Origin: a virus
Lineage: Monodnaviria > Loebvirae > Hofneiviricota > Faserviricetes > Tubulavirales > Inoviridae
Strand: one strand, 5' to 3'
Virus record (IMG/VR): IMGVR_UViG_2529292909_000007
Coordinates: 1 to 19,664 of that record
DNA length: 19,664 nt
Positions 5,662-19,529 of this stretch are shown piece after piece. Position numbers and translations under genes: made by a program. How positions within the stretch are numbered: position 1 is the stretch's first letter; each line of letters begins with the position of its first letter. A model generated the notes under the pieces. It saw nothing but the letters and a program-made list of their open reading frames with translations, searched no databases and had not been told where the DNA came from.

Positions 5662-6589
5662 ACCTGTGAGAGTAATTCAGGGTTGGTATAAACCTCTTTA
5701 AAGGCCGCATTAATATGTTTTTCTGTCAGCGCCGCGCCTTCACCGCTGGCGGTGAGCCACGCCTGGTTAAGCGTATGTGTCAGAACACGTAATGCTCCCG
5801 GCTTTTCAGCGATAGCCTGCATGACGGCCAGCTCGGCCTCACACTGATACCCCATGCCCTGGCAATGGCCAGCACATCCGCCTTTTTGGCCTTGCGAAGT
5901 TGTTTTGTACGGGCAAGACGGCTGAACAGGCGCGATAAATCATCAAAGGCGCGGCGTCCACCTTTAAACAATCCGCGCGGGTTACCAATAAGCACCATCC
6001 CGATCCCCGTGGCGTCCTGAATTGCCCGGAGTTGCTCCAGACCGTCAATACCAAGATGATCCGCCTCATCCACAATCACCAGTCCACGCGTTCCCGTCAG
6101 GCGACGGCGGATGGCGCGGGATAATGCCCCTTTGTTCGCGCGGGTGTAATCAATCCCCAGCGCATCGGCCAGCTCCAGCAGACACTCCGTGACGCTGGAG
6201 TGCGCGGGTGACAGGGTGATCATCCAGGTGTTTGGTTGCTCCTGGCAGTAATTACGGGCAGTGGCCGTTTTACCCACACCCGGTACGCCCACAATAACGT
6301 TAATACAGCCCATCAGGCGAACCGCCTGAAACAGTGCGCGCAGCTCCTGGACTGTCTGAGTTTCCACAAACTGCGGCGGTTCCGGCAGTGCGCTTTGTTT
6401 ATTCCAGTTCTCATACCAGGAGCGCAGGGAAGCAGCCACAGCGGCGTTATCGCCTTTATATTTCCCCTTGCGGAAAGCCGATAATGTGCCGTCGGAAATT
6501 CCCGCCTCTCTGGCGATGGCATACTGCGTCAGTACGCCGCCATCAATAAGTTCATCAATGGTCTTGATTACATCGTTTATATCGGTCAT
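5658..6589 (-). pseudogene. Mu B-like AAA+ transposition ATPase, split by an apparent -1 frameshift at C4 run 5850-5853
   Basis: Track ORF 5780..6589 carries Walker A GVPGVGKT and Walker B LVIVDEADHL. The C-terminal domain continues in ORF 5658..5855 (AEKPGALRVLTHTL), matching the recalled MuB C-terminus. One extra G/C in the run would give a single ~310 aa ORF. Confidence 0.8.
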
Positions 6590-6663
6590 ATTATTACCTC
6601 GCGTTTGTGTAGTTCCTTTGTTTAATCAAATAACCTGAGTCGCCGCTCGGGTTATTTTTTATT

Positions 6664-8751
6664 TCAGGCCAGAGGGTCATTTTCTTTTAATTTCGCTTCG
6701 AGCAACTGCAATCCCCGCTGGAAATTACGCTCGTATTCTTCATCAGGCTCATCATCAACGGCAGGTTGCTGAACGGTCACCGTATTACCCACAGGGCGGT
6801 ATATGTTTTCCAGCCAGGGCTCCTGCGGCTTGTGCTCCAGCACGTTGACAACCTCATCCTCGGCATCACGGATTTTTTCCTCTGCGCGTTTACGCATACC
6901 TTTAAGGCGTTGCTGCTGTTTGTAGTATTCCGCGCTGACCGGGAAGGCTTCGCGTTTATTGCCGTCCCATACCGCCTCGCAAATCACGCTGCCATCCGGG
7001 CGACGTACGGTAATTCGTTCGGCATCATGAATGTCATAGCTGATAAGCACCTTGCGGCCATGCTCATCACTCAGCTCGGGCGCGTAGTAAATATTATTCA
7101 GCCAGCGTATTTCACAGCGTCTTACAGGGCGTTTCACCATCGGCCGGAACATATCCCGCAGCTCAACATCGGACAGCCATTCAATTTCCGTGTCCTCTTC
7201 TGCCAGGCGTTTTTTTCTGAACTCCGCCGGGCTGTAATGCTTACCGTTCGGCTTCATGGGTAATTCATCGTGCGGCCGGTTGTTGTACCACTCAACACCG
7301 TCACGAATGGCATCAATCAGTTCAGACCAGGACGGTAAATCACGCATCGCTGACTGCTGCCGGGCGTTCAGCCGCTTACCCTGTTGCAGGGCATTAAATG
7401 CCGAGCGTAAATCGCGGTTGGTTTTGCGTAACGTCTCGCGATCTGCACCTTTTCCGAAATAGGTGCGGTATTTACGGGCTATGCGCATCGGTAATGTGCG
7501 GTTAAGCCGTTCGATAATGCCCCGTCCCTGCGGGTTACCGGCAATCCCGGTCGGGTGATTAATCCCCAGGCGCGGCAGGATCCCCACAACCTCCTTATCC
7601 AGGATGTCGGCGGTTTCCCCCGAGCCGTTATCCGAGTAATACAGAAACGGTTTGCCGTGATGGCGAATGCCGTGCTGTATGGCACCGGCTACAGCGAAAA
7701 CATTTTCAGCCAGATCAAGGCTCCAGCCCACCACAAAGCGCGTGCCACCGTCGATAACAAAGGTCACTTCCGGTGCGAATGGCCGCCCGTGAACCGGGTG
7801 CGCACATTTCAGCTTCATGCCGTGACCGTCACCAATCCAGACATAATTCACCGGCATTTTTGACCAGTCGCGGCGCGTGAATCCCTCAAGCTGGCGGTAT
7901 TCACTGCCGGTAACCCGTCCTTTTTGTTTCACCACTTCCGGCAGTTTCTTCATTGCGCGGCGAATGGTGTCATAAGACGGCATGATATCGAGCATATAAG
8001 GCTCATCAGCGTGCCGGTGCTGCCATTCGGCAACAAAATCCTCGTAAGCCTCGGTCATTGGTCGGCCGTTTGACTGGCGATACTGCGCCAGAAATTCGGG
8101 CAACCAGTTAATATCTTCGGCTTTTATTTCCTGGCGTTTACCTGGTGCCAGCAAAAGCAGGCGTTCAGCAGCGTTCTGTGCCTTATTAAAGGCCGCAATC
8201 CAGCGTTTCAGCGTGATTTCACTCAACACGCGACTGTTTCCCTTTCTGGCGTTCGCTATCTCAACCATTGCCACAATGCGCTCATCCAGTTGCGAGTGTG
8301 ACAGGCGGTCAACGATGAACCGGATAGCTTTAGCGCAGCTGAAACCGGGTTGTTGCGTGAATTTCAGCACCTCACTGACGATCGCAATGCGTGCGTCTGC
8401 CACCTGGCGCTGGTTTTCAGTCAGGGCATTGAGGCGTTCGACCATCAGTTGTGGTGATCCGCGATATGCCTCCACCGCATCAACCACGGCAGACGAGCGT
8501 CTGGCCTTTGTCACCACCGGAGCCGGTGATTCATCGGCTTTTTGCGTCATCAGTTGCAGGGCATAACGTTCGCGTAATGCCTGCTGTGTCACTTCAGGTA
8601 AACAGTCAATGCTGTATTCAAAACCTTTAGCGCCTTTCTTGCGGCGTCTGCTGGTTTCGCTGGTTGCATACTTCCTGATTGAATAGCGAACGCCTTGCTC
8701 CGTTCCCGGCATCCCCGGTAATCCAACCAGTTCTTTGACTGAAGCAAACAT
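6664..8751 (-). CDS. Mu-type DDE transposase (MuA-like), 695 aa
   Basis: Size and position immediately downstream of a Ner homologue and upstream of the B-like ATPase; long single ORF typical of MuA-family transposases. Confidence 0.85.
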   Translation of the reverse strand: MFASVKELVGLPGMPGTEQGVRYSIRKYATSETSRRRKKGAKGFEYSIDCLPEVTQQALRERYALQLMTQKADESPAPVVTKARRSSAVVDAVEAYRGSPQLMVERLNALTENQRQVADARIAIVSEVLKFTQQPGFSCAKAIRFIVDRLSHSQLDERIVAMVEIANARKGNSRVLSEITLKRWIAAFNKAQNAAERLLLLAPGKRQEIKAEDINWLPEFLAQYRQSNGRPMTEAYEDFVAEWQHRHADEPYMLDIMPSYDTIRRAMKKLPEVVKQKGRVTGSEYRQLEGFTRRDWSKMPVNYVWIGDGHGMKLKCAHPVHGRPFAPEVTFVIDGGTRFVVGWSLDLAENVFAVAGAIQHGIRHHGKPFLYYSDNGSGETADILDKEVVGILPRLGINHPTGIAGNPQGRGIIERLNRTLPMRIARKYRTYFGKGADRETLRKTNRDLRSAFNALQQGKRLNARQQSAMRDLPSWSELIDAIRDGVEWYNNRPHDELPMKPNGKHYSPAEFRKKRLAEEDTEIEWLSDVELRDMFRPMVKRPVRRCEIRWLNNIYYAPELSDEHGRKVLISYDIHDAERITVRRPDGSVICEAVWDGNKREAFPVSAEYYKQQQRLKGMRKRAEEKIRDAEDEVVNVLEHKPQEPWLENIYRPVGNTVTVQQPAVDDEPDEEYERNFQRGLQLLEAKLKENDPLA

Positions 8752-8753
8752 AA

Positions 8754-8984
8754 TTACGCGACCTTACGAATGTAGCGGCTGGGCCAAATCTCCTCGGGCG
8801 GCACCCCCAGGCATTCCGCGATAATCCCCTCATACTTGGGAACATGGCGGTATACCGCGTTGTACAGATTGTTCTGACCCACGCCAGCTTTACGGGCCAG
8901 CGCCCTCATGCTTCCTTCTCTGGCTCTGACTTCCCCCAAAATTCTTTGAGGATGCCAATCAGGCTTAACTTCATTTCTCGCCAT
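8754..8984 (-). CDS. ner: Ner-like DNA-binding regulator (76 aa)
   Basis: MARNEVKPDWHPQRILGEV...EEIWPSRY carries the DWH and IWPSRY motifs of Mu Ner / Nlp; divergent from the repressor. Confidence 0.85.
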   Translation of the reverse strand: MARNEVKPDWHPQRILGEVRAREGSMRALARKAGVGQNNLYNAVYRHVPKYEGIIAECLGVPPEEIWPSRYIRKVA

Positions 8985-18627: not shown

Positions 18628-18643
18628 TTAAATTTCTCCTGAT

Positions 18644-19174
18644 TTAACCTACTGCATAAAGTGGAGTTACACGCTGGCGATACCAGTCAGGCATAACTGT
18701 TTCCTGCATTGATATTTCACGCATATTATGAATAACAACACCGGGGGTTTTACTGGCATCGTATTCCATAGCAATATCAATGCCGATTTTACGAAGGCGG
18801 GCACGGTGTCGTCTGATTTGACCACCATTAAAATCAAATCGCTTGCCACACATCCACGAATAAGCAATAAAAGCCGTAGCATTTGCTGCTTTAACATTAT
18901 CAACAATGCCATTAGTTATTAAAGCTTCGGATATAGTATGAACATCATAAGCGGTTAAAGATAACTTGTTAACAATAGAAATAAATTCACGCTGAAGATC
19001 TTCAAGAATTTCAAATTCAGAATACCCCCAATAACATAAATCATGCTTCTGTAAATAGCGGGACTTTAATTTTTGTTCAAATCTGACAACCCCATTTAAA
19101 ACGAGAAATTCGTGTAATTGCTGAACATATCTGAATTCATTACTGTCTTCACCAAACTTAGATTTGATTTTCTT
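18644..19174 (-). pseudogene. replication initiator pII-like, C-terminal ~175 aa only, interrupted upstream by IS1
   Basis: Reading frame is open from the IS1 left end (19174/19175) down to the stop at 18644. Identity inferred from position upstream of gV in Ff gene order; sequence not recognised. Confidence 0.5.
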
Positions 19175-19229
19175 GGTGATGCTGCCAACTTACTGATTTA
19201 GTGTATGATGGTGTTTTTGAGGTGCTCCA

Positions 19230-19529
19230 GTGGCTTCTGTTTCTATCAGCTGTCCCTCCTGTTCAGCTACTGACGGGGTGGTGCGTAACGGCAAAAGCAC
19301 TGCCGGACATCAGCGCTATCTCTGCTCTCACTGCCGTAAAACATGGCAACTGCAGTTCACTTACACCGCTTCTCAACCCGGTACGCACCAGAAAATCATT
19401 GATATGGCCATGAATGGCGTTGGATGCCGGGCAACCGCCCGCATTATGGGCGTTGGCCTCAACACGATTTTCCGCCATTTAAAAACTCAGGCCGCAGTCG
19501 GTAACCTCGCGCATACAGCCGGGCAGTGA
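19230..19529 (+). CDS. insA: IS1 InsA with altered C-terminus (A5 instead of the canonical A6C frameshift window)
   Basis: [40 protein letters not shown]... matches InsA; the run at 19472-19476 has five A, so the ORF ends ...[15 protein letters not shown] rather than ...KNSGRSR. Confidence 0.85.

Follow-up and report, generated by a model that had tools for sequence, protein, structure and literature searches.

Private one-base shortfalls in a prophage contig of the Escherichia coli DEC6D draft genome: probable consensus errors beside an ancestral yneL-region lesion

Apparent single-base frameshifts in draft genomes can be compared with several described systems. Homopolymer-length consensus errors occur in drafts obtained with flow-based or long-read chemistry, at low coverage or at contig ends, and natural slippage pseudogenes are found in decaying prophages. 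The insertion sequence IS1 uses a programmed -1 ribosomal frameshift at an A6C motif to produce InsAB', and the yneL region of E. coli K-12, between ydeT and dif/hipA, harbours a pseudogene. These systems are used here as references for a stretch of 19,664 nucleotides (nt), hereafter the window (IMG/VR record IMGVR_UViG_2529292909_000007, Inoviridae), in which a Mu B-type transposition ATPase gene, a filamentous-phage pIV secretin gene, an IS1 copy and an AraC-family remnant (yneL region) each appear split by a single-base shortfall. Those shortfalls that are private to the window are probably consensus errors of the assembly, the yneL-region lesion being ancestral.

The whole window was identified by an exact-protein match as the 19,664-bp contig AIFY01000031.1 of assembly GCA_000249655.2 (Escherichia coli DEC6D), and ECDEC6D_1758 of this strain is the deposited form of one of its fragment open reading frames (ORFs). 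A sister contig, AIFZ01000020.1 (278 kb, assembly GCA_000249675.2; probably of strain DEC6E, as its accession follows on directly), was found via Mu A, DUF2523, pV and a YdeS fragment, and has the same ydeS::Mu junction, internal Mu deletion, phage-at-dif junction and IS1 junction as the window. Further comparison was performed with the Logan assemblies of the Sequence Read Archive runs SRR094136 and SRR094971, so that the evidence throughout consists of assembled sequences. SRR094136 shares the YdeS' fragment, the phage and the IS1 junction with the window; its YdeS'-bearing contig, SRR094136_604, ends at the Mu end. The ydeS::Mu junction protein was seen in the sister contig and in SRR094136 only, which makes it a handy marker of the clone.

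Between positions 238 and 19664, window and sister show eight length differences of 1 nt (at 5842, 6655, 9079, 13536, 17378, 17711, 17805 and 19481). Their only other differences are three substitutions in 3410-3415 and a CA dinucleotide at 19599-19600. The substitutions at 3410, 3413 and 3415 match the other inverted repeat of the window and lie 13-18 nt from the gix core AAACCTCGGTTT. They were consequently rejected as point mutations, and are an exchange or a mixing of reads at an invertible tail-fibre segment. Zero independent substitutions thus stand against eight length changes across 19.4 kb. A/T runs hold seven of the eight: 4 of the 25 A/T runs of at least 6 nt in the window and 3 of its 55 A/T runs of 5 nt differ from the sister, while none of the 68 G/C runs of at least 4 nt differs between the two contigs. 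Five of the one-base run differences come in addition to the runs named in the original prediction, and are as follows.

6655..6660: intergenic T6 run; T7 in the sister, SRR094971 and 18 relatives, T8 in 2 relatives
9079..9084: A6 run in the ner-repressor intergenic region, one base longer (A7) in the sister, SRR094971 and 6 relatives and two longer (A8) in 3 relatives
17378..17383: A6 run, as in SRR094136 and relatives; the sister, with an A5 that SRR094971 shares, is the outlier
17711..17717, minus strand: A7 run; A7 in the window and SRR094136 (ORF form of 117 amino acids, aa), A6 in the sister (146-aa form)
17805..17809, minus strand: A5 run, a fifth frameshift, which breaks the ORF starting MQSPD; A6 in the sister, both Logan assemblies and all family members

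The two intergenic shortfalls, at 6655-6660 and 9079-9084, are undetectable by a scan based on frameshifts. The small-gene region required its own polarisation: for 16950-19160 no close relative was found in complete genomes by megablast, the E. coli O158:H23 prophage L002 lacks homology in this region, and the sites of the region were polarised via the carriers of P0001. Six shortfalls are private to the window contig (5842, 6655, 9079, 13536, 17805 and 19481), all the relatives examined being longer. Carriers of the longer allele are the sister and SRR094971 at 5843, 6661 and 9085, the sister and SRR094136 at 13541, all three at 17810, and the sister at 19486. SRR094136 shares the window alleles at 17383 and 17717, yet has A6 at 13541 and 17810. 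Each of the eight length differences can be taken as a one-base shortfall of either assembly, of the window contig in six cases and of the sister in one or two.

The original prediction had named one run per split gene and proposed that adding a single base to each would restore the gene. All four genes are indeed split in the ORF listing and by their Pfam domains, and a base added to each of the named runs gives back a frame at 4 of 4 sites. A +1 insertion anywhere within a stretch of 116-241 nt has this effect, however, and such a stretch holds 6-15 runs of at least 3 nt, so that restoration in a named run is a weak, non-discriminating test. The missing bases were therefore placed by comparison with intact relatives. 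The named runs exist at 5850-5853 (C4), 11886-11888 (GGG) and 13536-13540 (A5); that of IS1, given as 19472-19476, is at 19481-19485, nine bases away. By the relatives, the lesion is a shortfall in the named run at two of the four genes, pIV and IS1 (A6 to A5 in both), and not at the other two, where it lies in a CC dinucleotide (Mu B) and in an AA dinucleotide (AraC remnant).

In the case of pIV, the gene and its lesion are:

12519..13798, minus strand: filamentous-phage pIV secretin gene, split into a 138-aa part and a 289/332-aa part
13536..13540, minus strand: pIV lesion, an A5 run; A6 in the sister, in the Logan assembly SRR094136 and in the diverged relatives L002 and L064

As written, the Pfam domains Secretin_N and Secretin do not stand in one protein of ~426 aa. 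The gene is intact at 426 aa in the sister, SRR094136 and relatives, and adding an A at 13536-13540 gives a 426-aa pIV identical to that of the sister. The simplest pairing of the two National Center for Biotechnology Information (NCBI) assemblies with the two runs would make SRR094136 the DEC6D read set; if so, the reads of the strain itself contradict the pIV lesion.

The IS1 copy is located at the end of the contig, with the following features.

19175..19664, plus strand: IS1 (IS1B type), left 490 bp, within phage gene II; the contig stops inside the element
19481..19485, plus strand: IS1 A5 run, with A5 in place of the A6C slippery motif; A6C in the sister
19599..19600, plus strand: CA for GT in IS1, 65 nt from the contig end, changing WLFYAYD to WLIYAYD

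The window copy matches IS1B-type copies exactly up to the motif, and then reads TTTAAAAAC versus their TTTAAAAAAC. At the same junction the sister has a full 768-bp IS1 with A6C, gapless against a K-12 copy. Because of A5, InsA is lengthened to 99 aa and insB' stands at +1, not -1, relative to insA; the canonical -1 slip is therefore unable to yield the transposase. The sister's copy at this site, unlike that of the window, combines an A6C motif with a -1 placement of insB'. RefSeq labels IS1 as 'programmed frameshift', and the window copy agrees with that system in its IS1B type, in the position of the run and in the A6C of the sister's copy at the same insertion; it departs from it in its A5C, in the loss of the slippery heptamer and in the +1 position of insB', for which a contig-end error is the most likely explanation. 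The A5 run lies 179 nt from the contig end. Among ~54,000 IS1 copies from 5,426 complete E. coli genomes, none has the CA variant of 19599-19600, which probably is an error of the contig end and marks this end as of poor quality. The pIV and IS1 lesions are very likely to be assembly artefacts.

For Mu B, the lesion and the named run are distinct.

5658..6589, minus strand: gene of a Mu B-type transposition ATPase, divided between an N-terminal piece of 269 aa (5780-6589) and a C-terminal piece (5658-5855)
5842..5843, minus strand: actual Mu B lesion; CAC in the window, CACC in the sister and 20 of 20 relatives, one C of CC being lost
5850..5853, minus strand: C4 run of the original prediction, of normal length and not the lesion; ACCCCA also in the sister and in 13 of the 20 relatives with intact Mu B

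The Pfam domains AAA_22 and Phage-MuB_C fall on two ORFs in different frames, so that as written no single-frame protein joins the AAA+ domain to the Mu B C-terminal domain. In the sister and in 20 relatives Mu B is one gene of 310 aa: the sister, the Logan assembly SRR094971 and 20 Mu-like prophages whose 310-aa Mu B is intact have CTCACCACTGAT, versus CTCACACTGAT in the window. Restoring a C at 5842 gives a 310-aa Mu B identical to that of the sister, whereas the protein has three incorrect residues (I248Y, S249Q and G250C) if the C is put into the C4 run. The C4 run, of normal length and yielding wrong residues upon repair, was thus rejected as the site of the lesion; the alleles of the relatives and the outcome of the repair place it in the CC dinucleotide, eight bases from that run. 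It is the only length difference outside runs of at least 5 nt, and this leaves room for a mixed case, in which the shortfalls in A/T runs (pIV, IS1, 6655, 9079 and 17805) would be consensus errors and the loss from CC to C in Mu B a real mutation private to DEC6D, carried by a prophage remnant that is unable to transpose productively anyway. Such a case is unlikely, as the lesion is private to a contig with five other private shortfalls, the remaining Mu B sequence is identical to that of the sister, and the 269-aa product is unique to the window contig. On balance the Mu B lesion, too, is rather to be considered as an assembly artefact.

Across the affected genes no further change versus the sister was observed. 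The truncated Mu B and pIV products were found on no other contig of the indexed assemblies (153 billion gene positions). The lesions are missing from independent data of the same clone, and the differences are confined to run length, with the exception of the inverted-repeat patch and the contig-end dinucleotide. In all these respects the window resembles homopolymer-length consensus errors of drafts: 1-nt differences concentrated in A/T runs of 5-7 nt, no accompanying substitutions, restriction to one assembly, a worse contig end and split genes. It is unlike them in that the Mu B lesion sits in a 2-nt run. With the natural slippage pseudogenes of decaying prophages it shares the location of the affected genes in two defective prophages, where inactivation is tolerable, and differs from them in the zero substitutions of these genes versus the sister and in a spectrum made of indels only.

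In mismatch-repair-defective E. coli, 6.02 substitutions have been counted versus 0.85 small indels per coding sequence, i.e. about 7:1 (PMC8510543, Table 3). Six to eight indels without any substitution are hence not a natural spectrum, since even such strains show about seven substitutions per indel. This bears on the possibility that all the shortfalls private to the window are real and very recent mutations of the DEC6D stock, arising by slippage in a mutator episode or under relaxed selection, in which case Mu B, pIV and the IS1 copy would be true pseudogenes. No selection would act against lesions in prophages that are already defective (~27 kb Mu deletion, gene II cut by IS1), and both the natural A6/A7 polymorphism at 17711-17717 and the A5 IS1 copies of 73 other records agree with such mutations. 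The window nevertheless has six private one-base deletions and zero private substitutions in 19.4 kb, against the ratio just cited (PMC8510543), the SRR094136 assembly of the same clone contradicts two of the six deletions, and the IS1 site is near the CA dinucleotide that is absent from ~54,000 IS1 copies and lies 65 nt from the contig end. Recent mutation at all these sites is accordingly very unlikely. From the assembled sequences we infer consensus error at the private shortfalls, rather than very recent mutation.

The consensus of the DEC6D draft contig would then have lost one base at a time, chiefly from A/T runs of 6-7 nt. Three of the six private shortfalls would produce the apparent frameshifts of Mu B, pIV and IS1, the one at 17805 would break a small phage ORF, and two would fall in intergenic DNA. 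The genes of Mu B, pIV and IS1 would be uninterrupted in the actual genome.

Several observations weigh against this explanation. The exact A5 version of IS1 is present in 73 of 9,096 IS1-bearing E. coli records, as either a recurrent variant or a recurrent error. The CC dinucleotide of Mu B is atypical for a homopolymer error, and the SRR094136 contigs compared do not cover the site. In 12287-12399, beside dif, the contig SRR094136_604 (L049) departs from the two NCBI assemblies through 9 substitutions and a 2-nt deletion; this variant patch resembles the relative L064, and SRR094136 may be a third member of the clone, or a genome with a second copy of the filamentous phage. The short allele of the sister at 17383 recurs in the Logan assembly SRR094971, which means that some shortfalls either are present in the reads as errors or are real. 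Lastly, run-length polymorphism is real in this phage family, both A6 and A7 being present at 17711-17717 in many assemblies.

The run at 17711-17717 is naturally dimorphic in related prophages, with A7/117-aa clusters on 64, 37, 13 and 7 contigs and the A6/146-aa form on 10 contigs and in the sister; the 117-aa form is the commoner of the two among independent assemblies. A third variant (P0014) has its frame switch further downstream. The dimorphism raises the question of contingency (phase-variable) tracts, with a culture mixing run lengths and each assembly sampling another state. Two run lengths at this site do give two ORF forms in many independent assemblies, and the SRR094136 and NCBI versions differ at two runs. 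Two discordant runs (6655 and 9079) are intergenic, however, with no obvious target, and every change is toward the shorter allele. By known standards, switching at a high rate needs longer tracts than A/T runs of 5-7, and we know of no phase-variable control of the run-length kind for Mu B, pIV or IS1. Contingency tracts are thus extremely improbable here. Real short runs could also mean that the prophage DNA of this clone loses single bases in A/T runs unusually often, by slippage without substitutions. If this were true, which we consider as highly improbable, the losses might be tied to the single-strand replication of filamentous phages or to Mu replication; sibling isolates would differ in the on/off state of Mu B, pIV, IS1 and small phage ORFs, and the dimorphic A6/A7 run at 17711-17717, with its 117-aa and 146-aa forms, would be one such switch.

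Consensus error does not extend to the fourth split gene, the AraC-family remnant, for which the features are:

11720..12008, minus strand: AraC-family remnant, pseudogene of the K-12 yneL region, without N-terminus and frameshifted
11890..11891, minus strand: actual yneL lesion; GAT-AGC here and in K-12 versus GATAAGC in in-frame relatives, GGG at 11886-11888 being unchanged

The yneL region has zero gaps versus K-12 MG1655 across 2283 nt, and the remnant is identical to that of K-12, lesion site included. An exact 76-mer spanning the lesion is found in 2,791 complete-genome E. coli records, and RefSeq annotates the copies of K-12 and other strains as 'frameshifted; incomplete' (N-terminus missing). 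Relatives whose copies are in frame (not flagged as frameshifted) read GGGATAAGC, versus GGGAT-AGC in the window and in K-12, so that an A of AA is lost (~11891). The GGG run, having the same length in the in-frame relatives, was rejected as the site of the lesion. The remnant agrees with the pseudogene of the K-12 yneL region in sequence, frameshift site, neighbouring ydeS and ydeT fragments and RefSeq note; only the surroundings differ, as here a filamentous prophage occupies the adjoining dif and a Mu-like remnant lies in ydeS, the lesion itself being the same. It is, with near certainty, an old and fixed pseudogene lesion of K-12-like E. coli and not an assembly error. The proposal of a systematic under-calling is consequently well supported for pIV and IS1 and probable for Mu B, with private lesions and an intact sister, and wrong for the yneL region, where K-12 has the same lesion. 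Four events in the same direction, offered as an argument for it, are weak evidence in themselves, and one of the four, the AraC remnant, is a genuine ancient lesion. The comparison with the sister carries more weight.

The gene map of the window, based on the ORF listing and Pfam, includes the following further features.

601-2655: SASA tail-fibre protein, right end of the Mu-like prophage
2741-3313: Gin-like invertase, right end of the Mu-like prophage
Right end of the Mu-like prophage, in addition: genes for tail-fibre assembly and for a tail fibre of 293 aa
Mu early region: a 73-aa gene, Mu B (5658-6589), Mu A (6664-8751), ner and the repressor gene
9960-12242: K-12 backbone, with the ydeS fragment, the ydeT usher fragment and the AraC-family remnant
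Filamentous prophage: pIV (12519-13798), Zot/pI, DUF2523, a pIII-like gene, the coat gene, small ORFs, pV and the 3' part of gene II

The right end of Mu is joined to its early region through an internal deletion, with the junction at 5386/5387. The distance from the 73-aa gene to the tail-fibre gene is ~200 bp here versus ~27.6 kb in an intact relative, and the element lacks ~27 kb, head and tail genes included. The deletion terminates within gp48. At the right breakpoint, TACCGGAATATGAATGTGCTGG, the retained right part begins at the identical base in at least five independent deletion derivatives (window 5386-5387; L050-L059; L038 at ~4853), and the left partners vary (73-aa early gene, tail tube, Mu A, GemA, Mor/DNA-circulation). 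The exact recurrence of this breakpoint in gp48 suggests a site-specific process. Beside the Gin-like invertase, a perfect gix-like core AAACCTCGGTTT (3386-3397) and an imperfect partner (4703-4714) flank the invertible tail-fibre segment.

The Mu-like element interrupts the fimbrial gene ydeS (9955-10305), of which a 116-aa YdeS fragment is left. The backbone (9960-12242) is 99.87% identical to MG1655, without any gap. The filamentous prophage (12243-19174) occupies the chromosomal dif, which we take to be the sequence at the junction 12215-12242 (ATTTAACATAATATACCTTATACGCAC versus K-12 ATTTAACATAATATACATTATGCGCAC). The related intact prophage L064 occupies the same hipA-ydeT location in other E. 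coli. Gene II of the filamentous prophage is interrupted by the IS1 copy. Both prophages are defective regardless of how the run lengths are read.

Overall, the frameshifts of the window are a quality issue of a 2012 draft assembly together with one long-known pseudogene, and nothing biologically unusual. The consequences concern annotation only: the Mu B gene, the pIV secretin gene and the IS1 copy of DEC6D should not be recorded as pseudogenes from the window contig, and the yneL region should. With about 1 in 6 of the A/T runs of at least 6 nt in the window being short, many spurious frameshifts are predicted at such runs in GCA_000249655.2, and pseudogene counts from this assembly, and probably from sister drafts too, would be inflated. 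Function would be barely affected, the Mu-like element being without ~27 kb and the filamentous replication gene being cut by IS1.

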